A stretch of 64,000 nt of DNA, from positions 1 through 64,000 of the IMG/VR virus record IMGVR_UViG_2866474162_000001. One strand, given 5' to 3'. The stretch is from a virus (lineage: Duplodnaviria > Caudoviricetes). A model generated the notes under the pieces. It ran no database searches. It saw nothing but the letters and a program-made list of their open reading frames with translations, and was not told the origin of the DNA. Below are positions 1,172-32,329 of the stretch, in pieces. Made by a program: the position numbers and the translations under genes. The first letter of the stretch is position 1, and every line of letters starts with the position of its first letter.

Positions 1172-1325
1172 CGGGCCCGGACGAGCCCCGCCGCATGACG
1201 CCGCCGGGCCGATCTTGTGCCCGGCGATCGAGACGGTTACGGTCCCACTGTTGCGCATATAGGTGCGTCGGCGGCAGCGCCCGCAGGACACCGGGTCGAG
1301 GCCGCCGCGTTCACGTGGAGGAACG

Positions 1326-2564
1326 GTGGCATCAGTCGAGAAGCGGACGACGAAGGACGGCAAGAGCACTCGGTGGCGGGTGAAGTGGCGCGAGGGCGGC
1401 CGCCGCGAGAACCCGTGGAGCAGCCGCACGTTCGACTACCAGGCCGACGCGAAGCGGTTCAAGACGCTGGTCGAGGTCGTCGGCGAGCGGATGCCGACGC
1501 CGGAGCAGCTGGTCGAGCACGGCTTCGCCGAGCTCCTTCCCGTCGGCGTGGCCGCCCCGGCGCCGGAGCCCGCCGAGCAGGTGCTGACGTTCCGGGCGTA
1601 CGCCGAGGAGTGGCTGGGCCAGCTGGTGAAGCCGCACCCGGAGACGGTGCGCAAGTACCGGGAGCGCTTGGAGAAGCACGTCTTCCCGCGGCTGGGCGAC
1701 CGGCCGATCGCCGAGATCACCCGGCGGGAGATGCGCGAGTGGCAGCAGGCCCTGCGCGACGCCGGCCTCTCGGCGAAGACGATCGCCAACATCCGGGGTG
1801 AGAGCGTGGTGCCGATCTTCAAGGCGGCGTGCCGGCCGGGCGAGGACGGGGAGCCGGCCGTGCGGACGTCGAACCCGATGGACGGGCTGCCGCTGCCCGA
1901 GGGCCCGCGCGCCGAGCGGGACATCCTGGAGAGCCCGGACGAGGCCCGGCTGTTCCTGGAGGCGGCGTACCAGGTGGACCCGGAGGCGGCGGACCTGCTG
2001 CTGTGCAAGCTGTCGACGGGGCTGCGCTGGGGTGAGGTGTCGGCCCTGCCGCCCCGGGCGGTCAACGTCGCCCGCTCCACGGTGTCCATCGTGCAGGTCC
2101 TGCGGAAGGTGAACCGGCGGTGGGTGGTCGAGCCCAAGCCGAAGACGAAGCAGGGTTACCGGGAGGTGCCGCTGACCGCCGCGGTGGCGCGGATGGTCGC
2201 CGAGCGGTGCGCGGCCGCCAGCCGCGAGCCGGGCCGGCAGTTCGTGTTCGTGGCGCCGCGCGGCAACCACTGGCGGTACGAGGACTTCTACACGGACCGG
2301 TGGGTGAAGATCCGCGACCTGGCCCGCGAGAAGGGTCTGCCGCGCCGGATGACGATGCACGGGCTGCGGCACTCGCTGCTGACGCTGCTGGCCACGGAGG
2401 GCGTCGACCTGGCGGCGCTGCGGACGATGGCCGGGCACGCCAGCGTGACGACGACGATGAACGTGTACGTGCACGCGACGCGGCGGCACCACGAGCCGGT
2501 GCGGCAAATCGTCGGGGGCTTCCTCGGCGTCGATGCGTTGGCCACGGGCTCACCCGTCGGGTAG
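1326..2564 (+). CDS. int: Tyrosine recombinase / phage integrase
   Basis: GTG at 1326 after GGAGG; N-terminal arm-binding region (WRVKWREGG), core domain, catalytic TGLRWGE, HGLRHS and GHASVTTTMNVYVH. Confidence 0.95.
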   Translation: MASVEKRTTKDGKSTRWRVKWREGGRRENPWSSRTFDYQADAKRFKTLVEVVGERMPTPEQLVEHGFAELLPVGVAAPAPEPAEQVLTFRAYAEEWLGQLVKPHPETVRKYRERLEKHVFPRLGDRPIAEITRREMREWQQALRDAGLSAKTIANIRGESVVPIFKAACRPGEDGEPAVRTSNPMDGLPLPEGPRAERDILESPDEARLFLEAAYQVDPEAADLLLCKLSTGLRWGEVSALPPRAVNVARSTVSIVQVLRKVNRRWVVEPKPKTKQGYREVPLTAAVARMVAERCAAASREPGRQFVFVAPRGNHWRYEDFYTDRWVKIRDLAREKGLPRRMTMHGLRHSLLTLLATEGVDLAALRTMAGHASVTTTMNVYVHATRRHHEPVRQIVGGFLGVDALATGSPVG

Positions 2565-3860: not shown

Positions 3861-4617
3861 AGCTCAAGCGTAGTGGGCGGCCTGCACGGCTCGCACTGGT
3901 TGCGACCGCATCCGACGCCATCGGGATGTGCGAGCCCAGCGAGCACGTCAGGCCAGATAGGTCGCCAACGGTCCAATGGCAGATCAACGCCGTGGCGGCG
4001 TGGCAGGACCAGGAGCGCCTCGGGTGACCTGCCGCGTCTCCTCGACTCGTCGTTCAGGCGCTGACTTCGGCGCACGGATCTCGGCTCTAACGAGCCGAAC
4101 GGAGGAGACGGCATGTGCCGGACATGGCTACCCTTGATCACGGAGCCGGTCGGTTGAACCCGGTGTTGACCCACTGGGCCGTGGTGCTGATTTTCCTTAG
4201 TTTGGCTTGCATCTCAACCCTTGTCTCAGTGTCCGTATCGGCAATGAGTCCTGAGAGCAAGGTGAGCCGGATGGTAGCAACGCCTGTCACCGTTGTTATG
4301 TCTGTCGAAGCGGGTCTGATGACCAACTTGGCAGCGTCAGCACTGGGTTGAGTCGATCGTCTCCACCCCAGTTACCCTTCCGAGTCGTATGGCAATTGGC
4401 AGGCCGGAGATGGCAGGGTGGACACTGTGACTGGACGGGAGATCGCCGAAGTGGGAACCTGCGAGACCTGTCATGATCCAGTTGACTTTACGAACGAGCA
4501 AGCCGTGGCGCACCATACTTTGCGTACCTCAGATGCCGCCTGTGACGCGTGCTGGCACTGCTGGGACAAGCCTCGTTGTTACAGGTGCTTCAACGCCGAC
4601 TGCGAGTGCTCAAACCA

Positions 4618-4953
4618 CTAGATGACCGGGACGTCGGCAAGCACAGAACAAACGTCCCGTTGACGCCCAACCGCGGAGCAGCCCAAGCAGTATGAACGTG
4701 GCACCAAGACCGATCCACCGCGCCCGGACACCACGATGCCAATGAGCGTGTCCATGGTGAGCCATGCGGCCGATTCTGTGGCCACCTCGACACGGCCACA
4801 CGAGACACAGCCCAGCTTCCCCAAGGGATGTCCAGGCGTGGTGGCCACCCATTGCCCGTCGGGGGCATTGCCGATTGGATCGGTTCCAACCATCAAAATC
4901 AGCTGAGCGCTCATCGGCAGAAGCGGATGTAGCCGTATCGCGTCGTCGGCCAT
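4618..4953 (-). CDS. Hypothetical protein with two CxxC motifs
   Basis: ORF MADDAIRL... with CVSC and CLGC; lies in a lower-GC patch. Confidence 0.4.
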   Translation of the reverse strand: MADDAIRLHPLLPMSAQLILMVGTDPIGNAPDGQWVATTPGHPLGKLGCVSCGRVEVATESAAWLTMDTLIGIVVSGRGGSVLVPRSYCLGCSAVGRQRDVCSVLADVPVI

Positions 4954-5188: not shown

Positions 5189-5371
5189 TCAGCGGCGCCC
5201 CGCCAGTGCCGGGCACGCCTGGTAAGCGGCTTCAAGGTCCGCCTCGGTGAAGCGGACCTTGCGGCCGAGGCGGTGGCAGGGGACGCGGCCCTTGGACACC
5301 CAGCGCCGGAGGGTGGTCTCCGCGATGCGAAGCTTCGCCGCGGCCTCGGCGTAGGTGTAGTCCCTGGCCAC
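5189..5371 (-). CDS. xis: Excisionase-like HTH protein
   Basis: 60 aa, YTYAEAAAKLRIAETTLRRWVSKGRVPCHRLGRKVRF; GGAGGAGG RBS. Confidence 0.85.
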   Translation of the reverse strand: MARDYTYAEAAAKLRIAETTLRRWVSKGRVPCHRLGRKVRFTEADLEAAYQACPALAGRR

Positions 5372-5544: not shown

Positions 5545-5617
5545 GCGCTGGAAGTGCTGTTGGCTGGCACGCCGCCGTTCCACGGTGGAGGCCCAGGTTC
5601 GAATCCTGGCCGGCGCT
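5545..5617 (+). tRNA. tRNA-Gly(TCC), non-canonical, CCA not encoded
   Basis: Acceptor GCGCTGG/CCGGCGC, D-stem GTGC/GCAC, anticodon arm CCGCC-GTTCCAC-GGTGG (TCC at 5579-5581), T-arm CCAGG-TTCGAAT-CCTGG, discriminator T5617 followed by CGA. Confidence 0.85.
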
Positions 5618-5651
5618 CGACGCCCGGCCACGGGGGAAGGTGGTGAGCGGC

Positions 5652-6998
5652 GTGTTCCACGGCAGCATCCCGGCTGACCTGCGCTCGATCATCTACGAGC
5701 ACGCGGAGTCCTGGCCGGACACCGACCTGTACGTCGGCTGCTCGGGGAACTTCACGATCGAGCGGACGCTGCACAGCCGGCCCGGCGAGCGCCGGGCGAT
5801 CCACGGCAACGACGTCCAGGCGTACAGCTCGGCGCTCGGCTGGTGGCTGGCCGGCCGGGAGCTGGACTACCGGCTGAAAGACGAGCACCGCGAGGAGCTG
5901 GCCTGGCTGGAGCCGTACTTGGCCACGTCGACGGACACCCTGGCGACGCTGATGCTCGGCACCCGGTTCCTCCAGTACGTCGGCCGGGAGGGCGTCTACT
6001 ACGAGCGGATGGTTCGGGCGACCGTCGGGCAGTTCCCGTCGATGCACGCCAAGACAGTGGGGAAGCTGTCCGCGCTGACGCTGCGGCTGGCCGACTACTA
6101 CTGCGGTGACGTGCGGGACTACCTGCGCGACGTCGTGGCGGCCGACGCGCCGGTGGCGATGTTCCCGCCGTTCTACGCGGGCGACTACGAGCAGCAGTTC
6201 GCCGGGATCGACGAGTTCTTCGACTGGCCGGCGCCGAGCTACGACCTGCTCGACGAGGACGGCAAGGAGGAGATCATCGGCGCGGTGCTCGACCGGCCGC
6301 ACTGGATCCTCGGCCTGCACATCGCCCGCGACGAGCTGCGCCCCTGGCTGCGCGGCGTCGTCCAGACCAGCAACCGCGGCATGCCGATCTACGTGTACGC
6401 CAGCTCGGGCGCGCGGCGCGTGGTCGCGCCCGCCCAGCAGGTCGCGCCGATCCTGCTGCCGAAGATCGGCCCCGGCGAGGACCTCGGCGACCGTATGGCG
6501 ATCCACGTGCTGACGGGCGGCCAGTTCGCGGCCGTGCGGTCGCAGTTCATGAGCAAGACGATCCTGCCCGGCTCCCCGTTGCTCGCCTGCGGCGTCAGCG
6601 TCGACGGGAAGCTCGTCGGCGCGTTCGCGTACCTGCCGCCGAAGTTCGACCCGAGCACCGCCTACCTGATGAGCGACTTCCCCGTGTCGTGGACCCGGTA
6701 CCGGCGGCTGGCGAAGCTGATCGTGATGGCGGCCGCCAGCCGCGAGGCACAGCTGCTGTTGCAGCGGTCCCTGTCGAAGCGGCTGACCGGCTGGTCGACC
6801 ACGGCGTTCACCGACCGACCGAACAGCGCCAAGTACGGACGGGGCATCCCCGGCGTGAAGCTGCAGAAGCGCAGCGATGCGGCCGCCGACGGCATCCACC
6901 GCTACCAGCTCCAGTACGGCGGCCCCCTGGGTAACTGGACCCTGCAAGAGGCGCTGGCGGAGTGGAAGCGCCGCCACGGGAAGGACGAGCGACGATGA
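5652..6998 (+). CDS. N6-adenine-MTase-like domain fused to a GNAT/Mom-like domain (putative DNA modification / antirestriction enzyme)
   Basis: N-terminal DLYVGCSGNFT (motif I-like), GNDV, and MFPPFY (degenerate motif IV); C-terminal GVSVDGKLVGAFAY...YLMSDFPV...RRLAKLIV...TTAFTD pattern resembles a GNAT fold. Start could be 5640, 5643 or 5652. Confidence 0.7.
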   Translation: MFHGSIPADLRSIIYEHAESWPDTDLYVGCSGNFTIERTLHSRPGERRAIHGNDVQAYSSALGWWLAGRELDYRLKDEHREELAWLEPYLATSTDTLATLMLGTRFLQYVGREGVYYERMVRATVGQFPSMHAKTVGKLSALTLRLADYYCGDVRDYLRDVVAADAPVAMFPPFYAGDYEQQFAGIDEFFDWPAPSYDLLDEDGKEEIIGAVLDRPHWILGLHIARDELRPWLRGVVQTSNRGMPIYVYASSGARRVVAPAQQVAPILLPKIGPGEDLGDRMAIHVLTGGQFAAVRSQFMSKTILPGSPLLACGVSVDGKLVGAFAYLPPKFDPSTAYLMSDFPVSWTRYRRLAKLIVMAAASREAQLLLQRSLSKRLTGWSTTAFTDRPNSAKYGRGIPGVKLQKRSDAAADGIHRYQLQYGGPLGNWTLQEALAEWKRRHGKDERR

Positions 6999-7450
6999 GC
7001 GACGAGCACCGCGGCGGCGAGCAGGCCGGCTGCCCGAAGACGCTGTGGGACGGGATGACGCCCCACCAGTGCGACAAGGGCGCCGACACGGGCGTGTGCC
7101 CGACCCACGGGCGGTTCCGGCACGACCAGCGGCCGGCCTCAGCCGACCCGGACAGGCCGTGCCCGCACGACGACCTGCACCTGGACGCCGACGTGCAGCG
7201 GCTGACCGCCTCCGAAGACGACCCCACGGTGGTGGCGTACATCGTGGAGCTCTCGATCCGCTGCCTGAGCTGCCAGGAGCGATTCCGTTGGACGGGCGTG
7301 CCCGCCGGGCTTATGCCGAACCGGCCGGCCTGCTCGCCCGACGAGTTCGTGCTGCACGCGCCGATCCGGCCCGCGAGCGCCGACCCGGACTTCGGGCTCG
7401 GCATCCCCGGGTTCGCCATCCAGTACCGCGAGGGAGGCGGGCAGCGGTGA
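6995..7450 (+). CDS. Cys/His-rich hypothetical protein
   Basis: ATGA overlap with the upstream stop; several C/H clusters including CLSC. Confidence 0.7.
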   Translation: MSDEHRGGEQAGCPKTLWDGMTPHQCDKGADTGVCPTHGRFRHDQRPASADPDRPCPHDDLHLDADVQRLTASEDDPTVVAYIVELSIRCLSCQERFRWTGVPAGLMPNRPACSPDEFVLHAPIRPASADPDFGLGIPGFAIQYREGGGQR

Positions 7451-8388
7451 GCGACGTCGACGAGCTGGCAGGGCCCGCCGACGGCGGCCCGCTGAACCTG
7501 CGCCCCGAGACGGTCGACCCGGCCAGCCTGACGCTGCTGGAAGTCAACGCGCGGTACATGCGCAAGGAGATGTTCGACCGCCTGGTGGCGAACGTCAGGC
7601 GGGACGGAGCGCTGACCAGCACGCCCCTGGTGTGGAACGACACGGCCGGCGGTCGGATGGTCGTGCTGTCCGGCAACCACCGGATCATGGCGGCCCGGGA
7701 GGCCGGCCTGGCGCAGGTCAACGTCATCGTGGTCGACCAGCCGCTGACCCGCGCCCGGCAGGTCGCGTTGCAGCTGTCGCACAACGCGATCGAGGGCGAG
7801 GACGACCCGGCCACGTTGAAGCAGCTGTACGAGGAACTGGACGACGTGGACTGGCGGGCCTACTCGGGCCTGGACGACAAGCAGCTCGACCTGCTCGCGC
7901 AGGTCGACCTGGAGGGCCTGTCCGAGGCGAACCTGGACTTCGCCACGGTGCAGCTGGTGTTCCTGCCGTACGAACTCGAGGCGGCCCGCGCCAGCTTCGA
8001 CGAGGCGCGGAAGCTGACACAGGCCGACGCCCGGTGGCTCGCCGGGTACGGCGACTACGAGGCCACCCTGGACGCCCTCGCGACGGCCCACGGCGCCCAC
8101 AACGTCGGCAACGTAGCCACCGCACTCGGCCTCATCCTCGCGGTGTTCGAGCGGCACCTCGGCGAGCTGCGCGACGGCGTGTGGCTCGACGAGGAGAGCG
8201 GCGAGCCGATCGGGCACGCGCACCGCCTGGTGCCGATCGAGACGGTGCTGGAGACACGCTCCATGCCGGCCGACGCGGCGGCGGTGCTGCACCGCGCCGT
8301 GGACAAGCTGGTCCGTACGGGCGAGGTGCCCGCCGACCAGCGGTGGCGGGCGCTGGAGCTGCTGGCCGCCGACTACCTCGCCGGATGA
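7447..8388 (+). CDS. ParB/Srx-like domain protein
   Basis: GTGA overlap; NARYM...LTSTPLV...VVLSGNHRIMAA ParB N-terminal motif. Confidence 0.85.
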   Translation: MSDVDELAGPADGGPLNLRPETVDPASLTLLEVNARYMRKEMFDRLVANVRRDGALTSTPLVWNDTAGGRMVVLSGNHRIMAAREAGLAQVNVIVVDQPLTRARQVALQLSHNAIEGEDDPATLKQLYEELDDVDWRAYSGLDDKQLDLLAQVDLEGLSEANLDFATVQLVFLPYELEAARASFDEARKLTQADARWLAGYGDYEATLDALATAHGAHNVGNVATALGLILAVFERHLGELRDGVWLDEESGEPIGHAHRLVPIETVLETRSMPADAAAVLHRAVDKLVRTGEVPADQRWRALELLAADYLAG

Positions 8389-8579: not shown

Positions 8580-8870
8580 ATGACCGGACCCGCCCAGAGC
8601 GGCGAGGACCTGTACGCCGGCCTCGACGAGCGCCAGCGGTACGAGCTGGACCGGCGGTGCGACTACCACCCGCCGAAGAACCTGGAGACGGCCGAGGCGC
8701 ACGCGGCGTGGCGGAAAACGATCAAGGGCGTGATGGCGGAAGCCATGCGCAGCCTGCCCGCCGGCCGCGAGACGTCGATGGTGCTGACCGCATTGGACGA
8801 CGCCCTGATGTACGGCAACGCGGCGATCGCCCGGCCGCCCATGAGCGGGGGACGCAAGGTCGGGCACTGA
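8580..8870 (+). CDS. Acb2/Tad1-like helical-hairpin protein (putative anti-defence)
   Basis: Strong GGAGGAG RBS; RRCDYHPP...LPAGRETSMVLTALDDALMYGNAAIAR resembles the REKSLALTKLEEALMWANAAIAR-type hairpin. Confidence 0.6.
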   Translation: MTGPAQSGEDLYAGLDERQRYELDRRCDYHPPKNLETAEAHAAWRKTIKGVMAEAMRSLPAGRETSMVLTALDDALMYGNAAIARPPMSGGRKVGH

Positions 8871-8926: not shown

Positions 8927-9541
8927 GTGACCATGAGCGAGCCGGAGGTGCTGCCCTGGGACCGGCAGCGCAGCGAGCCCGAGCGGGCGTACGGGTACTT
9001 CGCCCTGTACCGCGACGTGGGCCGCACCCGCACCGTCGCGAAGGTCGCCGAGCAGGTCCACAAATCCCGGGATTACCTCCACAAGCTCGCGACGAAGTGG
9101 CGGTGGGTGCAGCGGGCGCAGGCGTGGGACCGGGAAGAGGACCGGCTGTACGCCGAGAGCCTGGCCGAGCAGCGGCGCGACATGGCCCGCCGGCACGCGC
9201 GGGTGGCGTCGGCGCTGCAAGGGAAGATCGTCGCCCGGTTGCAGACCCTCGACGCGTCGAAGCTGACCCCGGGCGACGTGGCCCGCTGGCTGGAGGTGTC
9301 GACCCGGGTCGAGCGGCTGGCCCTGGGCCTGCCGGACTCCACGACCGCGCACACGGGCCCGGACGGCGGGCCGATCCGCGCCGAGGTCGAGCAGATGAGC
9401 GAGCAGCAGCGCGCCGACTTCTTCCGGGCGCTGATGGCCGAGGCCGCCGCCCGCGCCGGCCAGGCCAACCTGACCGCCGAGCCGGACGATCCGGGCGGCG
9501 ACGACGAGGAGGAGCCCGGTGGGGAGACGGAGCAGGGATGA
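8927..9541 (+). CDS. Probable terminase small subunit (HTH)
   Basis: PWDRQRSE...AYGYFALYRD.G..RTVAKVAEQ HTH, RAQAWD motif; positioned ahead of TerL. Confidence 0.7.
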   Translation: MTMSEPEVLPWDRQRSEPERAYGYFALYRDVGRTRTVAKVAEQVHKSRDYLHKLATKWRWVQRAQAWDREEDRLYAESLAEQRRDMARRHARVASALQGKIVARLQTLDASKLTPGDVARWLEVSTRVERLALGLPDSTTAHTGPDGGPIRAEVEQMSEQQRADFFRALMAEAAARAGQANLTAEPDDPGGDDEEEPGGETEQG

Positions 9542-10057: not shown

Positions 10058-11455
10058 ATGCTGCTGGCGTACCCGGACCCGGCGCTGATGACCGACGCCG
10101 AGCTGGCCGCGTACCTGCGCGAGGTGTCGGAGGTCCAGGGCCTCGTCCGGTACGACTGGCCGAGGCACGCGAGGCCGGAGCAGCTGGAGCCCGCCTGGTA
10201 CCGGATCTGGATGCTGCTGGCGGGCCGTGGCTTCGGCAAGACCCGCACCGGGGCGGAGACGGTGCGCACGTGGGCGGGGACCAGGCCGGGCGGGCACTAC
10301 GCGGTGGTCGCGAAGACGCACCGGGAGGTGTTCAACGTCTGCTTCACGGCGCGGCGTGCCGGCCTGCTGGCGGTGATCCCGCCGAAGGAGGTGCGGACGT
10401 TCAACAAGAGCGAGCCGTACCTGGAGCTGACCAACGGGGCGATCATCCGCGGGTTCGGCGCGCAGGACCCCGACGTGCTGCGTGGCTATGACTTCGACGG
10501 CTGTTGGCTCGACGAGTACGCGGCGTGGCCGGTGCAGACGGCGCAGGGCGTGTTCGACATGCTGTGGTTCTGCATGCGCGAGGCGGCGAGCCCGCGCATG
10601 GTCATCTCCACGACCCCGAAGCCGCTGCCGCACGTGAAGAAGCTGCTGGCGCGGTCGAAGAAGCAGCGTGCCCGTTCCCGCCGGCCCCGGGTGGTGGTGA
10701 CCCGCGGCCGGACGCTGGACAACGCGGAGAACCTGTCGCCGGAGGCGCTGGAGGAGCTGCTGGAGCAGTACGGCGGCACCCGGCTGGGCCGGCAGGAGCT
10801 GGACGCCGAGATGCTGTCCGACGTCGACGGCGCGCTGTGGAAGTCGGCGTGGATCGAGGCCGGCCGGTTCGACAAGGACGACGTGCCGCCGCTGGTGCGG
10901 ACGGTCGTGTCGGTCGACCCGGCGGACACGGTGTCGGAGACGAGCGACGAGACGGGCATCGTCGCGGTCGGCCGGGGCGAGGACGGCGAGCACTACGTGC
11001 TGGCGGACCGGAGCATGAAGATCGCCGGCATGGCGGCGGCCCGCCGGATCTGGCAGTGCTACCTGGACGTCGACGCGGACGTGGTGGTGTACGAGGGCTC
11101 CTCGGCGTGGCTGCGGGACATCCTGGTCGACGCGTGGGTGGCCATGCAGAAGGAGGACTTGCTGCCGGGCGGTGACCCGCCGATCGACGTGGTGCAGGCC
11201 CGCCAGTCGAAGCGGGTGCGCGCCGAGCCGGTGGCCGCCCGGTACGAGGTCGACCCGCCGCGCGTGCACCACGTCGGCACGTTCCCGGCGCTGGAGGACC
11301 AGCTGACGACCTGGACGCCGGAGTCGGGCGACTCCCCGGACCGGCTGGACGCCCTGGTGCACGGCGTGACGTACCTGCGGTCGAAGGAGTCCCGGCGTGC
11401 CTTAGTGGCTTCACCCCTCGGCCAACAGGTTCGACCAGCTGCGAGGCCCGGATGA
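10058..11455 (+). CDS. terL: Terminase large subunit
   Basis: Walker A AGRGFGKT, Walker B CWLDEYA, nuclease VSVDPA and PDRLDAL. Confidence 0.95.
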   Translation: MLLAYPDPALMTDAELAAYLREVSEVQGLVRYDWPRHARPEQLEPAWYRIWMLLAGRGFGKTRTGAETVRTWAGTRPGGHYAVVAKTHREVFNVCFTARRAGLLAVIPPKEVRTFNKSEPYLELTNGAIIRGFGAQDPDVLRGYDFDGCWLDEYAAWPVQTAQGVFDMLWFCMREAASPRMVISTTPKPLPHVKKLLARSKKQRARSRRPRVVVTRGRTLDNAENLSPEALEELLEQYGGTRLGRQELDAEMLSDVDGALWKSAWIEAGRFDKDDVPPLVRTVVSVDPADTVSETSDETGIVAVGRGEDGEHYVLADRSMKIAGMAAARRIWQCYLDVDADVVVYEGSSAWLRDILVDAWVAMQKEDLLPGGDPPIDVVQARQSKRVRAEPVAARYEVDPPRVHHVGTFPALEDQLTTWTPESGDSPDRLDALVHGVTYLRSKESRRALVASPLGQQVRPAARPG

Positions 11456-11472: not shown

Positions 11473-12819
11473 CTACTGCCTCAACACCTCGACGCCGGCC
11501 TCCTCGGCCCAGGCGACGATATGGGCCTGCTGGGGCCGATACCAGTAACTGAGGCGGATAGCTCCGTCGGGGGTGAGCGCTGGGACCTCGGGGGCACCGA
11601 ACGCTTGGTACAGATCGCTGGCGAGACGGTAGGTCGCCGCAACGAGCCCGGGTCCGTCGGCGCAGAGATCGTCGATGTCGGCGACAGCGTCAGCGACCGG
11701 TGGCTCGGTCAGGACATGGGTTCCGAGTTCCTCGTTTGGGTCTCCAACGCTGGAGACCAACTTGACCGGGAGGCGCTGCTCGCCCAGGTAGATTGGCGTG
11801 ACCGGCCAGATGGTGGCTCGGACAGTGGCGAGGCCACCAGCGGCTGCCCGGTCGCGTGCGTGGCGGGCAAGGAATCCCAGTGCCGCGCCGACGCCGACGG
11901 TGAGCGACGGGGCGTCCACGAGGTCGTAACGCCCGTCCTGGTCTCCCGACATCCGCCGATCGACCGCTTCGGCGAAGACGCCAGTCCCGTTCTCGTGCAG
12001 TTCGCACGCCCCACGCGAGTACGGCTTGTTCGGTTCGTAGGACGCGGTGCCGACCAGGCAGCGGCGCCGCACTGTGGACCGGGCGAAGCTGGGCACCGGG
12101 ATCCCGAACGCGGCCGGCCGCTGGTTGGCATTGCTCAGCTGGAAAGCGTTCAGGGCAGCGGTGTCGATGGTGAAGCTGCCTGGCAGGTCCGGGACCAGGG
12201 TGACGACCAGGAACATCTCGTCCGTCGAAAGGCGTTGGAGGAAGTCGGCTTCGATGCGGGCGGTCTCCTCGATACGGTCCGTGAATCCGGCGAACCGTGC
12301 CCGGTACGCCTCGGCCACCTCTGCCTCGGACAGCCAGATGGTCTCGGTGCCGATCCGCTTGGGGTAGAGCAGCGACTTGTTCTGGTTGACGTAGGCGTGC
12401 GGTGCTGTCGCCGACTGAGCGATCCAAATGATCAGGAAGCCGGTGCCGGGCCGGTCGGGATCCTCGACCGGGATGATGTCGAAGGTCGGCGTCGGGTGGA
12501 CGTTGGCGACGACGGTCTGTCGGAGCCGGCGCCGCTCGTCGTCGCTGATGGTGACGCCAGTGTCGTTGGCGGCGCGGCCCTGGTTGTCCTCGTCCATGCC
12601 GAGGATCAGGATTCCGCCGTTGGCGTTGGCCAGCGCGCCTACGTCGCCGCAGAGGGCCTTCCTGTCCCGGTCGCTGCTGGTGTAGGTGTCGCGCTTGAAG
12701 TCCAGGTCGGGGCCTTCCGTGGTGTCCGGGATGAGCCCCTTGACCTGCGCATAGGTCAGGGTCTCGTCGATCGGTCCGCCGAGGAGCTGTTCGAGCCTGC
12801 GGTTTCGCAGCGTTGGCAT
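11473..12819 (-). CDS. AlbA_2/Schlafen-domain protein
   Basis: EGPDLDFKRDTY...LCGDVGALANANGGILILGMDED, YPKRIG. Confidence 0.85.
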   Translation of the reverse strand: MPTLRNRRLEQLLGGPIDETLTYAQVKGLIPDTTEGPDLDFKRDTYTSSDRDRKALCGDVGALANANGGILILGMDEDNQGRAANDTGVTISDDERRRLRQTVVANVHPTPTFDIIPVEDPDRPGTGFLIIWIAQSATAPHAYVNQNKSLLYPKRIGTETIWLSEAEVAEAYRARFAGFTDRIEETARIEADFLQRLSTDEMFLVVTLVPDLPGSFTIDTAALNAFQLSNANQRPAAFGIPVPSFARSTVRRRCLVGTASYEPNKPYSRGACELHENGTGVFAEAVDRRMSGDQDGRYDLVDAPSLTVGVGAALGFLARHARDRAAAGGLATVRATIWPVTPIYLGEQRLPVKLVSSVGDPNEELGTHVLTEPPVADAVADIDDLCADGPGLVAATYRLASDLYQAFGAPEVPALTPDGAIRLSYWYRPQQAHIVAWAEEAGVEVLRQ

Positions 12820-12922: not shown

Positions 12923-12968
12923 ACCCTTGTCGTACCCGCCTGTTCACGTGGAAGAGGAGAGAGCGGAA

Positions 12969-14603
12969 GTGACAGCAGCAGTGAAGGCGCGGCCCCGGGG
13001 CAAGAAGGCCCCCTACCTCGCGCAGATCGACCCGCGGGAGCTGGTCGCGCACCCGACCAACCTCCGCACCCAGCTCGGCGACCTGACCGAGCTGCGCGCC
13101 TCGATCGCCGCGAGCGGCGTTCTGCAGGCGCTGACCGTCGTCCCCGAGGACGGCGGCATGCGGATCGTCGCAGGGCACCGCCGGGCGGCGGCGGCCGTCG
13201 AGGCGATCGAGGCCGGCGAGTGGCCCGACGGCACGCCGCAGACGGTGCCGTGCCTGGTGCGGCCCGACATGGAGGGGATGGCCCCCGCGCAGGTCGTCGC
13301 CATGCTGATCGAGAACGACCAGCGCGCCGACCTGACCGAGAGCGAGCGGGCCGCCGGATACGCGCAGCTGGAGCTGTTCGGCCTGGACGTCGCCGAGATC
13401 GCGCGGCGGACCGGCCGCACGCAGAAGCACGTCAACGCGGCGTTGAAGCTGACGAAGCTCGGCGAGGTCGCCACCGGCGCGGCCGACGCCGGCAAGCTGA
13501 CCCTGGAGGACGTCGCCGAGCTGGAGCAGTTCGAGGACGACCCGAAGGCGATGGAGCGCATCCTCAAGGGCGTCGAGAGCGGCTGGGGCGTCCGGCACCG
13601 CGTGCAGGAGGAGAAGCGCAAGCGCGACGACAAGAGCGCGACCGAGACGCTGACCGAGGAGCTGACGGCGGCCGGCGTCCGGGTGTTGAAGAAGCCGAAG
13701 GACTGGCCGTGGAACTGCGCGATGACCAAGGTCGAGGACCTGACCGACGCCGACGACCAACCGATCGACGTCGAGCAGGTCAAGACGCTGGAGGGGTTCG
13801 GCGCGATCATCGAGGGCTCGTACGGGAACATGCGGGCCGTCATCGTGTGCGAGGACCCCGACGCCCACGGGTACAAGCGCACGAAGTGGACGCAGTACAA
13901 GAGCCCCGCGCAGAAGGTCGCCGAGGAGCTGGCGAAGCGGGAGGCCGAGGAGCGGCGGCAGAAGCTGCTGGACGCCGGTGAGGTGCGCCGCCGGTTCCTC
14001 GTCGAGCGGTGGGGCAGCGCGAAGGCGGCGAAGACGCTGCTGGTCGACGCGATGCGCGCCGCCGTGGTGATGCCGGGCTTCTACGACCGGGCCGAGGAAG
14101 AGCTGGTCGCGGCCCTGGCCGGCGGTGACCCGCGCGACGGGCAGACCGCCGGGATCGACCGGCTGAACCGGCTGCTGGTCGCCCGGTTCGTCGCCGCGCA
14201 CGAGGCCAACACGTCGACCGTGGCGGCCGGGCGGTACTCCAACCGGAACCACCTGGTGCTGCCGTGGTTGAACCGCCTGGTGGCCGAGGGCTACGAGCTG
14301 TCGGAGACCGAGAAGACCTGGCACGCCGAGCTGGTCGAGGAGGAGGAAGAGCGGCAGCGGGCGCTGGAGCAGGAAGAGGCCGAGGCGGCGGCCGAGCTGG
14401 AGTACGACGACGCCGAAGGCTACGTGGAGGACGCCGAGGGTGTGCGGCCGATCGAGGACGTGCAGCTGCCCGAGGGCGACGTCGAGCCGGCGGCCGAGCC
14501 GGACGACGACGCCGACGGCGACGGCGAGCCGCAGGCTGAGACGGACCCGTGCCCGGACGCCGACCTGGACGCGGCCGAGCCCGAGGCCGGCGGCGAGCAG
14601 TGA
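12969..14603 (+). CDS. ParB/Spo0J-like protein with acidic tail
   Basis: IDPRELVAHPTNLR, IVAGHRR, ENDQRADLT motifs, followed by an HTH. Confidence 0.88.
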   Translation: MTAAVKARPRGKKAPYLAQIDPRELVAHPTNLRTQLGDLTELRASIAASGVLQALTVVPEDGGMRIVAGHRRAAAAVEAIEAGEWPDGTPQTVPCLVRPDMEGMAPAQVVAMLIENDQRADLTESERAAGYAQLELFGLDVAEIARRTGRTQKHVNAALKLTKLGEVATGAADAGKLTLEDVAELEQFEDDPKAMERILKGVESGWGVRHRVQEEKRKRDDKSATETLTEELTAAGVRVLKKPKDWPWNCAMTKVEDLTDADDQPIDVEQVKTLEGFGAIIEGSYGNMRAVIVCEDPDAHGYKRTKWTQYKSPAQKVAEELAKREAEERRQKLLDAGEVRRRFLVERWGSAKAAKTLLVDAMRAAVVMPGFYDRAEEELVAALAGGDPRDGQTAGIDRLNRLLVARFVAAHEANTSTVAAGRYSNRNHLVLPWLNRLVAEGYELSETEKTWHAELVEEEEERQRALEQEEAEAAAELEYDDAEGYVEDAEGVRPIEDVQLPEGDVEPAAEPDDDADGDGEPQAETDPCPDADLDAAEPEAGGEQ

Positions 14604-17472: not shown

Positions 17473-17772
17473 ATGGCTGAAACGAGACGACGGTTCGACC
17501 GGGAGTTCCGCGAGGGCGCGGTGCGCATCGTGCGGGAGACCGGCAAGCCCATCGCGCAGATCGCCCGGGACCTGGGGATCAACGAGGGCACTCTGGGTAA
17601 CTGGGTCAACCAGGACAAGCGTGCTCGCGGCGAGGCCGCGGCCGGCGGTGGGCTGTCCGAGGACGAGCGTGCCGAGTTGATGCGGCTGCGGAAGGAGAAC
17701 GCCGAGCTGGCGATGGAGCGTGACGTGCTCAAGCGATCCGTGGTCCTGTGGGTCAAGGAGGCGACGAAGTGA
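17473..17772 (+). CDS. IS3 transposase OrfA
   Basis: [19 protein letters not shown] plus leucine zipper ([16 protein letters not shown]). Confidence 0.95.
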
Positions 17773-18659
17773 GCGTGGCAGCGTTCGTGGCTTCCCAGAG
17801 GACCGAGCACGGTGTGCCGCACACGGTGACCTGCCGCGCGTTGGGCCTGTCCGAGTCGTGGTTCTACAAGTGGAAGGATCGGCAGCCCACGCCTGGTCAG
17901 CGTCGGCGGGCCGAGCTCGCCGAGAAGATCCGCGAGGTCTTCGACGCCTCGGGCGGCACCTACGGCTCACCTCGGGTGACCCAGGAGCTGCGGGCGGCCG
18001 GCTGGCGGGTCGGGGAGAACACGGTGGCCCGGTTGATGGCCGAGCTCGGCCTGGCCGGACGCGCACCGAAGCGGCGGCGCGGCCTGACCAGGCAGGGTAA
18101 GCGGCCGGCGGCGCCGGACCTCGTGCGCCGGCAGTTCACCGCACCGGCGCCGAACGTGTTGTGGTGCGGGGACATGACCGAGATCGTGACCGGGGAGGGC
18201 AAGCTGTACCTCGCCACGGTGATCGACCTGTTCTCCCGCCGGCTGCTCGGCTACGCCATGTCCGCCCACCACGACGCCGACCTGGTGGTGGCGTCGCTGC
18301 GCATGGCGACTGCCACTCGTGGTGGCGACGTCGACGGGGTGATCTTCCACTCGGATCGGGGCAGCGAGTACACCTGCGAGGCGTACGAGACCGCCTGCTC
18401 CCGGCTGGGGGTGCTGCAGTCGATGGGCCGCGTCGGTAGCGCGTTGGACAACGCCGCGGCGGAGGCGTTCAACTCCACCATCAAGGTCGAGTACATCCAC
18501 CGGCAGCAGTTCCGCACCCGCGCCGAAGCACGGTTAAAGATCTCGACCTGGATTGTGGACTTCTACAACCTCCGTCGCAGGCACAGCGCCTGCGACGGCA
18601 TGTCACCCATCGACTACGAGCATTTCATGGCCGAGGCCAGGAGGGCCGAAGCCGCTTAA
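17769..18659 (+). CDS. IS3 transposase OrfB (DDE)
   Basis: GTGA overlap; [25 protein letters not shown]. Confidence 0.95.
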
Positions 18660-28570: not shown

Positions 28571-31500
28571 TTGTCGTCGACCATGACGAGTGGTGGAAGC
28601 GCAAGGTCTGAGCGTTACCTGTACGAGCGGTTGTCGGAAAAGCTGTTTCAGCAACTGTGCAACGCCCTGCTGGTGTTGCAGTTCCCCGACGTTTCGTGCT
28701 TCCCCGTTGGGCAGAAGGACGGCGGCCGGGACGCGGTGCGCAAGGAAGGCCAGAAGCCTGGGGTGATCTACCAGGTCAAGTGGTCCAAAGACGCGGTCAA
28801 GAACCCGGTGACGTGGCTGGCTGCCACCATCAAGGAAGAGACGAAGAACATCGAGCGTCTCGTGGCCGAGGGTGCGACGGCGTACGTGCTGATGACCTGC
28901 ATCGCGGGCACGAGCGCGCCCGGCACGGGCAGAATGGACAAACTCGACGCGGAGCTCGCCGAGTACTCGAAACAGTTCGGCATCCCGATGACGTGCTGGT
29001 GGCGCGCAGACATCGACGCCCGAGTGGAAAGCGCGCCCCGGGAACTGGTCTGGTCGTTCTCGGAGATGCTGGCCGGCCAAGACGCGGTGCGGTACGTCAT
29101 TGAAGCCGACAAGATCGCCGCACATGAGCAGACTCTCCGCCGGTTGCTGCTCAGTCTGATCGCAACACAATGGGAAGAGGACGCAAAAGTCAAGTTTCGG
29201 CAGGTCGAGATGGACACCTATAACCTCCTCGACCTATATGTGGACGTCGAAGCCGTCCGCATCGCTAAACCCCGGAACGCGGCGCCGAAACCAGCAGTTA
29301 CGACCATCCACATTCCCGATGATGACGACCCTCTGCCGCGTCCTCCAGTGCACCAATATCTCGTCGACGGGACCTTGACGCCCGAGGAGGAGCAGGCGCT
29401 CGGTGGGGCCGCCCAGTACCTCCTCAACGCGACCCAGCCGTTGATCCTCGTGCGCGGCGAGCCAGGCCAGGGCAAGTCGACCCTTGCTCAGTACTTGTGT
29501 CAACTCCACCGTGCAGCCTTCCTGCCTGAAGGGGAGTACTTCGCTGGCCCGCGCCCCAAACGTGCCGTGAGCGCACCGAGGCTTCCGCTGCGAGTTGACC
29601 TGCGTGACTACGCCCGGTGGTGTTCTGGAGAGGATCCATTCGCAGAGGACGAGGCGCGATCGCCGCGCCGACGACGCCCGAGGCCGCAGCCAACGCTTGA
29701 GAAGTTCCTCGCTCACCTGATAGCGGCACGCAGCAACGGCGCTGATGTCGGAGTGGACGCCGTGATCGATGTGATTAGCCGTTTCCCGATGTTGGTCGTC
29801 CTAGATGGGTTGGACGAGGTGGCCCATCAGGACGCCCGGAAACGTATTGTGAGGGAGATCGACGAGTTCGCCGCACGACTGGGTGCCGGCGCAACCGCGC
29901 CGCAATTGATCGTGACCACTCGTCCCAACGCCTCGGGCTTGGCGGAACCTTCTGCCGACAAGTTCGAGACCATCGCGCTCGTCCCGCTCAGTCCCGATCT
30001 GCGCGCCGCCTACCTACGCAAATGGGCTGACGCGCGGGGACTGCGCGGCATGGCCCGCAGAGCGCTGGAGGGAACCTTCCGACACCGATCGATCGAACCT
30101 CACATCGCGCAACTGGCCGATAACCCCATGCAGTTGACAATCCTGCTCTATCTAATTCAAAAGCGCGGGGACTCGGTACCTGATGGACGCACTCAGCTCT
30201 TCCGTGCGTATATGGAGACGTTCCTGGACCGAGAGTCCGAGAAGAGCCGGTCCGTACATGAGCACCGCGACGACCTGGAGGAGGTCACCGCCTACCTCGG
30301 CTGGCACTTGCAGGCCTCCGCCGAGACGGACCCAGCGGCTGGCCGAGTGCCGACGAGGGCGGTCCGTAAGGCCATTTTGAACTACCTGGATGACGTAGAG
30401 AAGGACACGACACTCGTCGACGACCTCTTCACGGCGGTGACTGACCGCGTGTGGGCGTTGACCAGCAAGGTACAAGGCACCTTCGAGTTCGATATCCAGA
30501 CGATGCGCGAGTACTTCGCCGCCTCGTACCTCTGGGGATACGCTGGAGCGGACCTGCGTGGCTTTGACAAATCGACGATCCTGGGAGAACTTGTCCGACG
30601 CGCCTACTGGCTGAACACGTGCCGCTTCTTCGCAGGGTTCGCTAACCCGAACGAACTCTCCGGCCTGGTTGACGTGCTGGAGGAGGAGTTCGATGGACGC
30701 CAACGGCCGATGCAGGTCCGGCTTGCCGCCTGGACTCTGCTACAAGACGGCGTTTTCGCCAGGCAAACACGCGCCCAAAAACGTGCCACAAGGCTATTCG
30801 CTGACGACCTCAGTGTCCGCCTTATCGACGACGCCCTACGCGACAAACGCGCCTTCACCTATCCAAACCGTGCCGTCAGGGCGTTGGCTGAAGATCGCGG
30901 CGCCGGACATCTGGTCTCTCTGCTCTTGGAGAAGACCAAGGCGGACCCGAACCACAACTTAGGCCCAACCCGTATTAGTCTGGCTACACAGATCGGCGCG
31001 GATATCCATGAGTGGTGGTTGCCGCACATGGCCGCGGCTGCGGGTAGCCAAAATGAACTAGCCTGGCTCCGCTGCGGTATACCGTTCCGGGGAGCCGCCC
31101 GCCTGAAGCCGGATGAGGTGGCCCGGCTACGACTCAACTCTACAGAAGCCGCTGAAGTTGCAATCAGTTGCGGCTTGAAGGCCCCCACTGGCTCGCCACT
31201 GGAGCAGAAACTCATCCGCGCCGTCCTTGACGGGCATTGCTCCGAAGCAAGCCTTACGGCTGCCACCGGAGTGGCTGGCGACCTGATCAAGGTGCTCGCG
31301 CCGTGGCGCTTCCTGAGCAGAGCCAGGAAGCACCCAGATGGCGCACACCGAGTGAGCGTCGGTCATCGCTTCGTCGTCGGCATCTCCGACCAGTCCCGCG
31401 AGGTGGCACAGCGTCGCCTACGTGACTACGAACCCAGCTTCGACCGGGTGCTGTCCGCGATGCGGGTCGGCCGAGGCCAAGCCGGAACCACCTCCATGTG

Positions 31501-32329
31501 GAGCGACACCGCGCGGGAGCTCGCCACGCTGTACGGCCCGTGCTGGCTCGCTACCGAGATCGCGGTGATCGGCGCGGCGAGCCCCGACAGCCTCTGGACC
31601 ACAGGTGGCACCATCACCCGAGGTGCAGAACCGTTCGGGCCGGACCCCGACTACGGCAAGCTCCTCCAAGAGTCGCGCTTCAACAGATCCAACGCCGATT
31701 GGTGGAAGCACCATTTCGATACCTACGCTGACGCGCTGTCTCGGGCGAGCTGGTGCCTCGCTCTGATTGCCGTCGCCTCTGAGCCGGTCGTGCTGAGCAA
31801 CCTCGAAAGACTCGATGCGGCAGTGACTGCGATGCCGGCAGAAATGCAACGTGCTCTTAGCCTAAGTTCCAGCCGCCTAGGCGTAGCGCGCCTCGGCAGG
31901 CGCATCCGCCCTGATGTGCTACGGCGTGCTGGCTCCTTCTCCACCCTCACGGCCATGCTCGTCGCGCACCACTCTCTCGAGACCAATCGAAAACTGGACG
32001 AGCTCCAAGGCCTTACTGACCAGCAGCTCGCCGAAATGGGTCGATTCGGTGTCGCCGGTTGGCCCGGCCTGCGCGGGCTTAGCGCACGTATGTTCAAGCT
32101 TCCGTCAGCGGAGCTACTTGACGGCCTTCGTGCTCACGGCCACGATGCTGTAGTTGGCTTGGAAGGGCAGCGGGGGCCTCTGCCTCAATCGCTGCTTTTG
32201 TCGATATTGGAATCACCTGCCGACTACCCGATGGCGTGGGTTCTTGCCGCGGAGCAGCGGGTCGCGTTCAGTTTCCGGGACCGGCCGCTCGCGCAAGTAG
32301 CCGAGGCGTGGTTTCCCAGGCTCGGTTAG
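28571..32329 (+). CDS. REase-like N-terminus + NACHT/STAND NTPase (NLR/Avs-like)
   Basis: FQQLCNALL...KDGGRDA...YQVKW; Walker A GEPGQGKST; Walker B VVLDGLDE; long helical C-terminus. Confidence 0.88.
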   Translation: MSSTMTSGGSARSERYLYERLSEKLFQQLCNALLVLQFPDVSCFPVGQKDGGRDAVRKEGQKPGVIYQVKWSKDAVKNPVTWLAATIKEETKNIERLVAEGATAYVLMTCIAGTSAPGTGRMDKLDAELAEYSKQFGIPMTCWWRADIDARVESAPRELVWSFSEMLAGQDAVRYVIEADKIAAHEQTLRRLLLSLIATQWEEDAKVKFRQVEMDTYNLLDLYVDVEAVRIAKPRNAAPKPAVTTIHIPDDDDPLPRPPVHQYLVDGTLTPEEEQALGGAAQYLLNATQPLILVRGEPGQGKSTLAQYLCQLHRAAFLPEGEYFAGPRPKRAVSAPRLPLRVDLRDYARWCSGEDPFAEDEARSPRRRRPRPQPTLEKFLAHLIAARSNGADVGVDAVIDVISRFPMLVVLDGLDEVAHQDARKRIVREIDEFAARLGAGATAPQLIVTTRPNASGLAEPSADKFETIALVPLSPDLRAAYLRKWADARGLRGMARRALEGTFRHRSIEPHIAQLADNPMQLTILLYLIQKRGDSVPDGRTQLFRAYMETFLDRESEKSRSVHEHRDDLEEVTAYLGWHLQASAETDPAAGRVPTRAVRKAILNYLDDVEKDTTLVDDLFTAVTDRVWALTSKVQGTFEFDIQTMREYFAASYLWGYAGADLRGFDKSTILGELVRRAYWLNTCRFFAGFANPNELSGLVDVLEEEFDGRQRPMQVRLAAWTLLQDGVFARQTRAQKRATRLFADDLSVRLIDDALRDKRAFTYPNRAVRALAEDRGAGHLVSLLLEKTKADPNHNLGPTRISLATQIGADIHEWWLPHMAAAAGSQNELAWLRCGIPFRGAARLKPDEVARLRLNSTEAAEVAISCGLKAPTGSPLEQKLIRAVLDGHCSEASLTAATGVAGDLIKVLAPWRFLSRARKHPDGAHRVSVGHRFVVGISDQSREVAQRRLRDYEPSFDRVLSAMRVGRGQAGTTSMWSDTARELATLYGPCWLATEIAVIGAASPDSLWTTGGTITRGAEPFGPDPDYGKLLQESRFNRSNADWWKHHFDTYADALSRASWCLALIAVASEPVVLSNLERLDAAVTAMPAEMQRALSLSSSRLGVARLGRRIRPDVLRRAGSFSTLTAMLVAHHSLETNRKLDELQGLTDQQLAEMGRFGVAGWPGLRGLSARMFKLPSAELLDGLRAHGHDAVVGLEGQRGPLPQSLLLSILESPADYPMAWVLAAEQRVAFSFRDRPLAQVAEAWFPRLG

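Follow-up and report, generated by a model that had tools for sequence, protein, structure and literature searches.

A phage module of a Dam-like/GNAT fusion enzyme, a ParB-like partner and a tRNA-Gly as a candidate system for tRNA-dependent modification of DNA adenine

Introduction

The Mom protein of bacteriophage Mu moves glycine from Gly-tRNAGly to the N6 of a flipped adenine in double-stranded DNA; it acts after replication and its mark is anti-restriction, the N6-glycyl-dA of Mu rearranges to N6-carbamoylmethyl-dA, and a helix-turn-helix (HTH)-like insertion, thought to hold the DNA, is essential to the enzyme (Silva et al., Nat Commun 2026, PMC13219725). The present analysis concerns a stretch of 64,000 nucleotides of high-GC actinobacterial DNA (IMG/VR record IMGVR_UViG_2866474162_000001, positions 1 to 64,000; hereafter the window), assigned to the Caudoviricetes, whose nearest homologous loci are those of Micromonospora, and in particular a module at positions 5,545 to 8,388 with a conserved core composed of a transfer RNA gene (tRNA-Gly), a gene encoding a Dam-like domain fused to a GNAT domain, and a gene for a ParB-like protein. 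By analogy with Mom, we consider it rather probable that this module carries out a Gly-tRNA-dependent modification of DNA adenine, through a new enzyme family served by a dedicated donor tRNA. A similar proposal had been made from the letters of the window alone, and this original prediction had named the use of Gly-tRNAGly by Mom as a point to be verified, which the published work confirms (PMC13219725).

Hypermodification of adenine by a phage GNAT enzyme in a tRNA-dependent manner is therefore already known from the work on Mom (PF25680; PDB 8bv8), which resembles the enzyme described here in being a phage protein that combines a GNAT core with a DNA-binding addition. The two nevertheless belong to different Pfam families, and what would be new with respect to Mom is the Dam-like domain fused in place of the HTH-like insertion, the obligate partner of the ParB/Srx fold and, in most loci, a dedicated and apparently non-decoding tRNA, whereas Mom acts alone and with the tRNA of the host. 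To our knowledge, Mom, with its host tRNA, is so far the only enzyme that places a tRNA-borne amino acid on DNA.

Transfer of an amino acid from an aminoacyl-tRNA to a non-ribosomal acceptor, in this case the peptidoglycan precursor, is also performed by the GNAT-fold enzymes of the FemX/FemAB group, and Staphylococcus possesses non-proteinogenic tRNA-Gly isoacceptors that keep their charging identity while changes in the D-loop GG and the T-stem keep them off translation. Such dedicated tRNA-Gly species are the nearest analogy for the tRNA of the module, although the FemX/FemAB genes are cellular rather than part of a phage cassette, lack a methylase-fold domain and a ParB partner, and do not use DNA as acceptor; FemX is likewise cited as a GNAT-fold aminoacyl-tRNA transferase in the report on Mom (PMC13219725). 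Two further groups resemble parts of the module. The D12-class methylases Dam, T4 Dam and DpnM share with the Dam-like domain their motif order and the PP core of motif IV, but in the module this domain has no match to PF02086, carries F instead of the D/N of (D/N)PPY and occurs only as a fusion with a GNAT domain. Phage ParB-methyltransferase fusions and ParB-like nuclease-domain proteins (phrog_498, phrog_620) share the N-terminal ParB/Srx domain, the GxxR-type motif (here SGNHR), the association with a DNA-modifying enzyme and the vicinity of packaging genes, but the ParB-like protein of the module is a separate, family-specific protein (phrog_7405) with a C-terminal part of about 200 residues. 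No description of the system came up in literature searches for the names given to the family by Pfam and NCBI or for tRNA, ParB and methylase in combination.

Results and discussion

Organization of the module and linkage of the tRNA

The tRNA-Gly(UCC) gene lies at 5545-5618 on the + strand (ARAGORN) and has no encoded CCA. It is followed on the same strand by the fusion gene (5643-6998; PF22555, PF22559, phrog_7858), whose frame offers three GTG starts, at 5640, 5643 and 5652 (21, 24 and 33 nt from the end of the tRNA, respectively), preceded by the ribosome-binding stretch GGGGGAAGG at 5631-5639. We have adopted the start at 5643, which yields a protein of 451 residues; the open reading frame (ORF) of 448 residues in the original prediction corresponds to the start at 5652. 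The tRNA-Gly(TCC) just 5' of this ORF was thus recovered as predicted, as were the motifs DLYVGCSG (residues 28-35) and FPPFY (residues 174-178) and the translational coupling of the two downstream genes, a Cys/His-rich ORF and the ParB-like gene, through start/stop overlaps at 6995 and 7447.

In order to delimit what is conserved, we examined a total of 173 homologous loci, which comprise 47 loci from species-representative genomes at 60-97% identity, plus a Streptomyces plasmid, from Micromonospora, Actinoplanes, Nonomuraea, Streptomyces, Kitasatospora, Nocardiopsis and other genera, 3 loci of cultured phages of Mycobacterium and Gordonia, and 123 loci on viral contigs down to 33-34% identity. 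The enzyme family as a whole forms 847 clusters at 50% identity (E <=1e-3). Among the first 130 loci, ARAGORN placed a Gly-type tRNA just upstream and on the same strand in 98, and in Mycobacterium phage Taptic the tRNA of the module had been annotated by the depositors. Divergent copies such as those of the Gordonia phages escaped both ARAGORN and Rfam at its gathering threshold, and a search of phage records with RF00005 missed even the annotated tRNA of Taptic, so that its result was not used; a covariance model built from the 85 distinct copies of the tRNA family recovered 18 tRNAs beyond those of ARAGORN and Rfam, among them those of Gordonia phages Soos and Clawz. In the final tally, the tRNA is directly upstream in 120 loci, further upstream in 5 and downstream, mostly right after the ParB-like gene, in 6, while 36 loci have none and in 5 the flank is too short. 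Enrichment of a tRNA-Gly beside the homologues, on which the original prediction had staked itself beforehand, is accordingly very strong, with 131 of the 173 loci, down to 34% identity and with cultured phages included.

Where the module contains a tRNA, this is of a single type, specific for glycine, and never part of a tRNA array, and no tRNA for another amino acid was seen in it at any of the 173 loci. Its placement shifts between loci, from upstream positions to tandem pairs, the opposite strand or a site downstream of the ParB-like gene, and when mapped on a FastTree phylogeny of 151 distinct enzymes it is found in each of the two deep branches and requires at least 14 changes of state, being present in 58 of the 59 rows of the actinobacterial clade of the window and lacking from one clade of 13. 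The shifting positions, the tandem duplications, the persistence at 34% protein identity and the presence in both deep branches argue for selection on the linkage rather than for frozen synteny.

Some particular arrangements may be recorded here. In one branch (L150, L159, L160, L162, L127) the Gly-type tRNA stands just 3' of the ParB-like gene and not 5' of the enzyme gene, and in L093 and L124 the two tandem copies differ in the base at position 34. ARAGORN also reports an 89-nt 'tRNA-Arg(cct)' on the - strand within the coding region 3' of the ParB-like gene in two Micromonospora loci (L002:8851-8939 and L003:8845-8933), which is probably a false positive.

The tRNA is constrained in its charging features rather than in its decoding features

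The tRNA of the window is phage-borne and additional to the host set, which includes tRNA-Gly genes with GCC, UCC and CCC anticodons elsewhere in the genome; its sequence differs from that of the host tRNA-Gly(UCC) on contig C25. Across the 85 copies, cloverleaf pairing is kept in 95.8% of cells, as against 69% in shuffled and about 40% in slid alignments, and 375 double changes are found, with compensation in 17 of the 21 cloverleaf pairs. The features that vary hardly or not at all are the pairs 1-72, 2-71 and 3-70 and U73 (85/85 each), C36 (85/85) and C35 (83/85); G1-C72, C2-G71, G3-C70, U73, C35 and C36, all present in the window copy, make up what we take to be the identity set of the bacterial glycyl-tRNA synthetase (GlyRS), and this set is common to the three tRNA-Gly isoacceptors of the host.

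Features associated with decoding behave differently, and at the level of the family the canonical elongator traits fail (U33, purine 37, 32-38, G18G19, T54-U55-C56 and the anticodon). Position 34 is U in 61 copies, A in 12, C in 11 and G in 1; U33 is kept in 71 of the 85, a purine at 37 in 66, the D-loop GG in 38 and U55 in 62, compared with 58/59 for U33, 59/59 for purine 37 and 57/59 for GG in a control of 59 host tRNAs. In 77 of the 85 copies, as opposed to 14 of 61 host tRNAs, positions 32 and 38 are joined by Watson-Crick pairing, and they covary (C-G 64, G-C 9, U-A 3, A-U 1); judging from the sequence, such a pair would shrink the anticodon loop to five bases with C35 and C36 still exposed. 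The tertiary pair 8-14 is retained through a swap from U-A to A-U in 16 copies, including that of the window, which indicates that the L-shape is under selection. Codon usage offers no alternative role, since GGA represents 6.0-6.6% of the glycine codons of the prophage versus 5.3% in the host, that is, no enrichment, and codon supply was rejected on this ground.

As the identity set is invariant and the cloverleaf covaries while ribosomal features are relaxed and GGA is not enriched, the tRNAs of this family look chargeable yet unfit for decoding, as if selected for their fold and for glycylation. The notion that the phage supplies its own glycyl donor is supported in so far as the phage carries the tRNA itself and the family retains the GlyRS identity set as its decoding features decay; glycylation, the target base and the anti-restriction effect are predicted. 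As a separate observation, anticodon loops of 8 or 6 nt occur in some copies (L035:5723-5796, L061:2723-2796, L046/L092, L071, L083, L102), for which ARAGORN reads the anticodons as 'tcca', 'tc', 'cc' or 'gc'; functional decoding of four or two bases is unlikely.

The N-terminal domain has a Dam-like fold and a motif IV without the catalytic D/N

The fusion enzyme matches PF22555 ('Phage DNA adenine methylase-like domain 1') over residues 5-275 (E 4.7e-106, 354.5 bits, cut-off 27) and PF22559 ('Phage GNAT-like domain') over residues 283-446 (E 2e-58, 197.3 bits, cut-off 27), and all listed homologues carry both domains. Members of the family are named 'putative antirestriction adenine methyltransferase' by NCBI and UniProt. 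No NCBIfam model matches the enzyme, PDB sequences searched with the protein or with the family profile gave only chance matches, and a search for stand-alone, naturally split GNAT forms returned only fragments of close relatives. The full-length enzyme was modelled with AlphaFold from 28 sequences, with a predicted local distance difference test score (pLDDT) of 87.

Comparison of the N-terminus with N6-adenine methyltransferases, which had been proposed as a check, gave E. coli Dam as the best structural match of the Dam-like domain (5655-6467, + strand; PF22555), with Z 12.6, a root-mean-square deviation (rmsd) of 4.7 and 191 aligned residues (2g1p; VIA-align), together with T4 Dam (1yfj; Z 12.1, rmsd 4.8, 192 aligned) and DpnM (2dpm; Z 11.7, rmsd 5.2, 204 aligned). 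Generic Rossmann methylases reach similar Z scores with only about 150 residues aligned, and the greater length of the Dam alignments (191-204) means that the target-recognition part of Dam is included. At the sequence level, the D12-methylase family PF02086 gives no match at E <=0.1.

The motif that sets this domain apart from active methylases is motif IV (FPPFY, residues 174-178, nt 6162-6176), which reads FPPF(Y/F/W) throughout an alignment of 28 sequences down to 52% identity (A1), the first F being Y in one sequence. An hhalign comparison, weak and not significant overall, lays FPPF on the DPPY of E. coli Dam in a sensible register, and P175-P176 are nearly invariant down to 32% identity. 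Replacement of the catalytic D/N by F (or Y) in 28 of the 28 sequences makes methyl transfer unlikely, so the suggestion of the original prediction that the enzyme perhaps further methylates the base finds little favour. Motif IV seems to matter all the same: in some members of about 700 residues (P0096, P0028, P0039 and others) a Hint/intein element is inserted one residue after FPPF(Y/F), beginning with Cys and followed by a C-extein that resumes with S-G-D-Y-E, and inteins usually occupy functionally critical sites, which makes it likely that the motif is important. Apart from motif IV, the residues that are invariant or nearly so are the glycine loop G32-C-S-G35-N (within VGCSGN, residues 31-36), D57, which follows strand 2, and D156, which follows strand 3, so that an adenosine-binding pocket may persist in the domain. 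The Dam-like domain is probably a base-flipping and recognition module and not a methylase.

The C-terminal domain has a GNAT fold without the usual CoA loop

The C-terminal domain (6489-6980, + strand; PF22559), folded alone, is predicted with pLDDT 93 and a predicted template-modelling score (pTM) of 0.90, and the model is that of a GNAT fold, matching GNAT structures at Z 10-11.8. Mom (8bv8_B) ranks 4 among the 1000 best Foldseek chains (Z 10.9, rmsd 2.9, 139 aligned) and 3 of 48,161 representative chains (Z 10.8, rmsd 3.0, 140 aligned); with the full-length model it was not in the Foldseek top 50, the model of the domain alone being needed to retrieve it. The best viral structural match is a 695-residue 'amidoligase' fusion protein (E 5.7e-14). 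The invariant residues of the domain are S344-D345-F346, K358, T386-T387-A388-F389, S395, K397, Y398 and R400. GNAT enzymes normally carry at beta4-alpha3 an R/Q-x-x-G-x-G/A loop for the pyrophosphate of coenzyme A (CoA), whereas the corresponding loop of this domain reads DFPVSWTRYRRLAKL and contains no glycine.

The ParB-like protein is an obligate partner

The third gene of the core (7447-8388, + strand) encodes a ParB/Srx-fold protein of 313 residues (phrog_7405, 5e-70; phrog_620, 2.3e-15), and its GTG start at 7447 overlaps the upstream TGA at 7448-7450. The assignment to ParB/Srx rests on the PHROG profiles, as the Pfam ParB_N score of 22.2 bits is under the cut-off of 26.3; Atlas clusters give ParB/Srx at 0.98. 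The protein consists of the ParB/Srx N-terminal domain and some 200 further residues, and the motifs SGNHR, QLSHN, G-x-DD and Y-x-x-LDD are invariant in its alignment (A6). A full-length homologue, at 37-95% identity, lies directly 3' of the fusion gene in 129 of the first 130 loci, which substantiates the view that a ParB-like gene is a recurrent partner and makes it essentially obligate for the enzyme.

Proposed mechanism and the points that weigh against it

From the observed anatomy, folds, motif states, genomic linkage and pattern of tRNA constraint we infer that the tRNA is charged and acts as the donor, and likewise which atom is modified, what product forms and that the mark is anti-restriction, in the following sequence of events. 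The tRNA-Gly would be transcribed with the operon and then excised, would gain CCA where this is not encoded and would be charged by the GlyRS of the host. Having drifted from decoding needs in its anticodon arm and tertiary core, it could serve as a private pool of activated glycine, a donor supplied without competing with translation. The Dam-like domain would probably bind the double-stranded DNA of the phage and flip out the target adenine, whereupon the GNAT domain would probably take the glycyl-A76 end and move the glycine to the adenine N6 in a Mom-like manner; the ParB/Srx-fold protein would probably either load or spread the enzyme on phage DNA before packaging or else act on the adduct. 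The expected outcome is virion DNA that resists the restriction enzymes of the host.

A number of observations weigh against this scheme, whose donor, target base and product are predictions. The tRNA copy of the window is itself fairly canonical and among the more canonical of its family, with U33, GG and TTCGAAT present and deviations only in the G32-C38 Watson-Crick pair and the swapped A8-U14 tertiary pair, and 36 of the 173 loci, including one clade of 13 members, have no tRNA within about 3 kb, so that in those phages the tRNA is dispensable or lies elsewhere and a private tRNA is not always needed; moreover, the 173 loci are relatives that were not de-replicated between collections, and their counts are not numbers of independent events. 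The prophage of the window may be defective, given an insert of 27 kb between its terminase and portal genes. Conservation of G32, S34, G35, D57 and D156 makes binding of S-adenosylmethionine (SAM) possible.

The kinship with Mom also has its limits. Ordinary acetyltransferases, which use acetyl-CoA, come within 1 Z of the Mom score, and this tie confirms the fold but no special relation to Mom. The Mom profile PF25680 matches Mu Mom and not the protein of the window, BLASTP between the two gives E 10, and hhalign of the family profile yields a probability of 0.4% against Mom and of 2.7% against a profile of 25 Mom sequences. The alignment with the latter covers only the beta2-beta3 hairpin and leaves the catalytic residues R111, S124, D149 and R151 of Mom unmapped, and in the domain model the HTH-like insertion of Mom (Mu residues ~175-209) has no counterpart, the strands 131-136 and 146-153 being only 9 residues apart. 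The earlier expectation of a Mom-like C-terminus is hence borne out as regards the GNAT fold, with Mom among the top structural matches, but not as regards membership in the Mom family. In terms of classification, the enzyme is not a Mom-family protein because PF25680 does not match it, nor a Dam methylase because of its motif IV.

Alternative explanations

One variant, to which we assign a small chance, gives the central role to the methyltransferase fold itself: the adenosine pocket of the Dam-like domain (glycine loop, D57, D156) would bind glycyl-A76 in the place of SAM, and this fold would catalyse the aminoacyl transfer to adenine at FPPF, with the GNAT domain either docking the tRNA or carrying out a further step on the adduct, and with ParB spreading the enzyme along phage DNA. 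The pocket could accept such a ligand because SAM and glycyl-A76 are both an adenosine carrying an amino acid. If true, it would be the first case of a methylase fold turned to aminoacyl-tRNA-dependent transfer onto DNA, with a tRNA that stands outside the genetic code as its supplier.

Donation of glycine by the tRNA is denied altogether by the explanation that it is an ordinary phage tRNA, either a supplier of codons or a nuclease-resistant substitute for a host tRNA-Gly that defence systems attack, which is linked to the enzyme solely by inherited gene order, the enzyme being then acyl-CoA-dependent or a purely DNA-binding anti-restriction protein. The near-canonical copy of the window, the clades without a tRNA and the NCBI label 'antirestriction methyltransferase' fit this idea. 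Phage tRNAs with altered anticodon loops can, besides, evade the anticodon nucleases of the host, a circumstance that also counts against the donor role, and the toxins FaRel2 and TacT are reported to target tRNA-Gly. We nonetheless regard the explanation as unlikely: GGA is not enriched, position 34 includes A and C, some loops are malformed, the 32-38 closure and the losses of U33, G18G19 and U55 would harm decoding, the module holds one Gly tRNA and never an array with a linkage that is kept even where the position has moved, and the GNAT loop lacks the glycine of the usual CoA-pyrophosphate site.

Rather less probable still is that the tRNA is the substrate and not the donor, with the methylase-fold/GNAT protein methylating or acetylating the phage tRNA in the manner of TrmN, Trm14 or TmcA, or acetylating Gly-tRNA as TacT does. 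The tight adjacency of the genes would suit an enzyme-substrate pair equally well, TrmN (3tma; Z 12.1, rmsd 3.4, 152 aligned) and Trm14 too score within 1 Z of Dam, and GNATs that act on tRNA are known, e.g. TacT (PMC13219725). The Dam matches, however, span about 190-210 residues and include the target-recognition part, whereas those with tRNA methylases span about 150; motif IV has no catalytic D/N; the obligate ParB/Srx partner is of a DNA type and, with the position next to the terminase genes, points to DNA; and a translation tRNA with a modifier of its own should not lose U33 and G18G19 or close 32-38.

We judge it very improbable that the protein, despite its unusual motif IV, is active in SAM-dependent methylation of DNA adenine and produces plain N6-methyladenine, with a GNAT domain and a tRNA that are unrelated to catalysis. 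In favour of this explanation are the Dam fold, the database names and the invariant glycine loop, D57 and D156, which occupy the SAM ribose and adenine positions of class I methyltransferases. It would have to accommodate F (or Y) in the place of the catalytic D/N in every sequence of A1 and the lack of a Pfam D12-methylase match at E <=0.1, and it gives no account of the tRNA or of the fusion to a GNAT domain; we know of no active N6-adenine methylase with FPPF.

Least probable of all is that the tRNA-like element is a processing, regulatory or recombination site of the operon that is never aminoacylated: its distance from the start codon is 24 nt, it would be cut from the mRNA leader, and tRNA genes serve many actinophages as attachment sites, but a tRNA-like shape would suffice for such a role whereas the GlyRS identity set is invariant (C35 83/85) while the rest covaries, and the integrase adjoins tRNA-Leu and the sequence differs from the tRNA-Gly genes of the host. 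None of these last four explanations accounts jointly for the invariance of the glycine identity, the decay of the decoding features, the dead motif IV and the presence of an obligate partner of a DNA type.

Implications

If Gly-tRNA-dependent modification of adenine by this module were confirmed, the strategy of Mom would prove to be widespread, in view of the 847 clusters in actinobacterial and many uncultured phages, and to have arisen a second time, in a GNAT family that is unrelated to the first and is joined to a disabled Dam fold. It would further imply that phages can retain a tRNA purely as a metabolic cofactor, whose sequence separates the features of charging from those of decoding, and it would explain some of the orphan single tRNA genes of phages and reassign hundreds of genes that are now labelled 'antirestriction adenine methyltransferase' or 'hypothetical'. 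The predicted DNA adduct would be readable by sequencing and may block restriction enzymes, which matters for the engineering of Mycobacterium, Gordonia and Streptomyces phages, and the existence of cultured carrier phages makes the question directly testable.

Prophage context and accessory genes

ARAGORN finds two tRNAs in the window, the other being a host tRNA-Leu(GAG) at 982-1068, which is followed by a tyrosine integrase gene at 1263-2564 (+ strand; PF00589, 1.9e-19). This region (982-2564) is likely the left end of the prophage (attL), and in related loci of Micromonospora this tRNA-Leu likewise precedes the module, at a distance of 3.5-5.8 kb. The integrase beside tRNA-Leu and the portal, head and tail genes at 39-54 kb identify the element as a prophage integrated at tRNA-Leu with the tRNA-Gly about 4.5 kb inside. 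Since the integrase adjoins tRNA-Leu, the tRNA-Gly, 4.5 kb away, was rejected as the attachment site. The right attachment site (attR), sought as a second copy of the tRNA-Leu 3' end, is absent from the 64-kb window, and the prophage extends beyond its end. An excisionase-like HTH gene (5189-5371, - strand; PF12728, 2.5e-13; phrog_1840) is divergent from the tRNA-Gly, and between it and the integrase region a lower-GC stretch contains a Cys-rich ORF of 67 residues (4418-4621) with several CxxC motifs and no family match in Pfam or PHROG. A scan for sigma-70 promoters and terminators gave no match, with a scan model that is ill-suited to actinobacteria.

The module lies just 5' of the terminase genes (small subunit 8927-9541, phrog_6299, 8.9e-25; large subunit 10058-11455, PF03237, 1.6e-15; both + strand) and heads the packaging operon; the genes for portal, head and tail follow beyond a lower-GC insert of about 27 kb. 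This block (11473-38900; GC 0.63-0.69), situated between the gene of the terminase large subunit and that of the portal, encodes a Schlafen/AlbA_2 protein (11473-12819, - strand), a second ParB with an HTH domain (12927-14603), an insertion sequence (rve) transposase (17748-18659), an Mrr-type endonuclease, a GIY-YIG protein, an ATP-dependent DNA ligase, a WXG100-domain protein, a NACHT ATPase of 1252 residues (28571-32329) and a helicase-like protein (32553-35633, - strand), and it looks like a defence or mobile island placed in the packaging operon.

Two small genes near the module are outside its conserved core. The Cys/His-rich ORF of 151 residues (6995-7450, + strand), which sits as an accessory insert in the interval between the enzyme and the ParB-like gene, has an ATG at 6995 that overlaps the enzyme TGA at 6996-6998 (ATGA); it has no match in Pfam, PHROG or NCBIfam, and Atlas returns only viral hypothetical proteins. 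The original prediction had listed it among the coupled genes, and while its presence and coupling are as described, tblastn limits it to 7 close Micromonospora loci and one partial match, so that it does not belong to the conserved kit; in other relatives from Micromonospora this interval holds either another insert or nothing. The second gene (8580-8870, + strand; PF24729, E 1.2e-10; phrog_1454), which lies between the ParB-like gene and that of the terminase small subunit in only 14 loci, all of Micromonosporaceae, encodes an Acb2/Tad1-hairpin-like protein of 96 residues, a possible cyclic-nucleotide sponge directed against CBASS or Thoeris.

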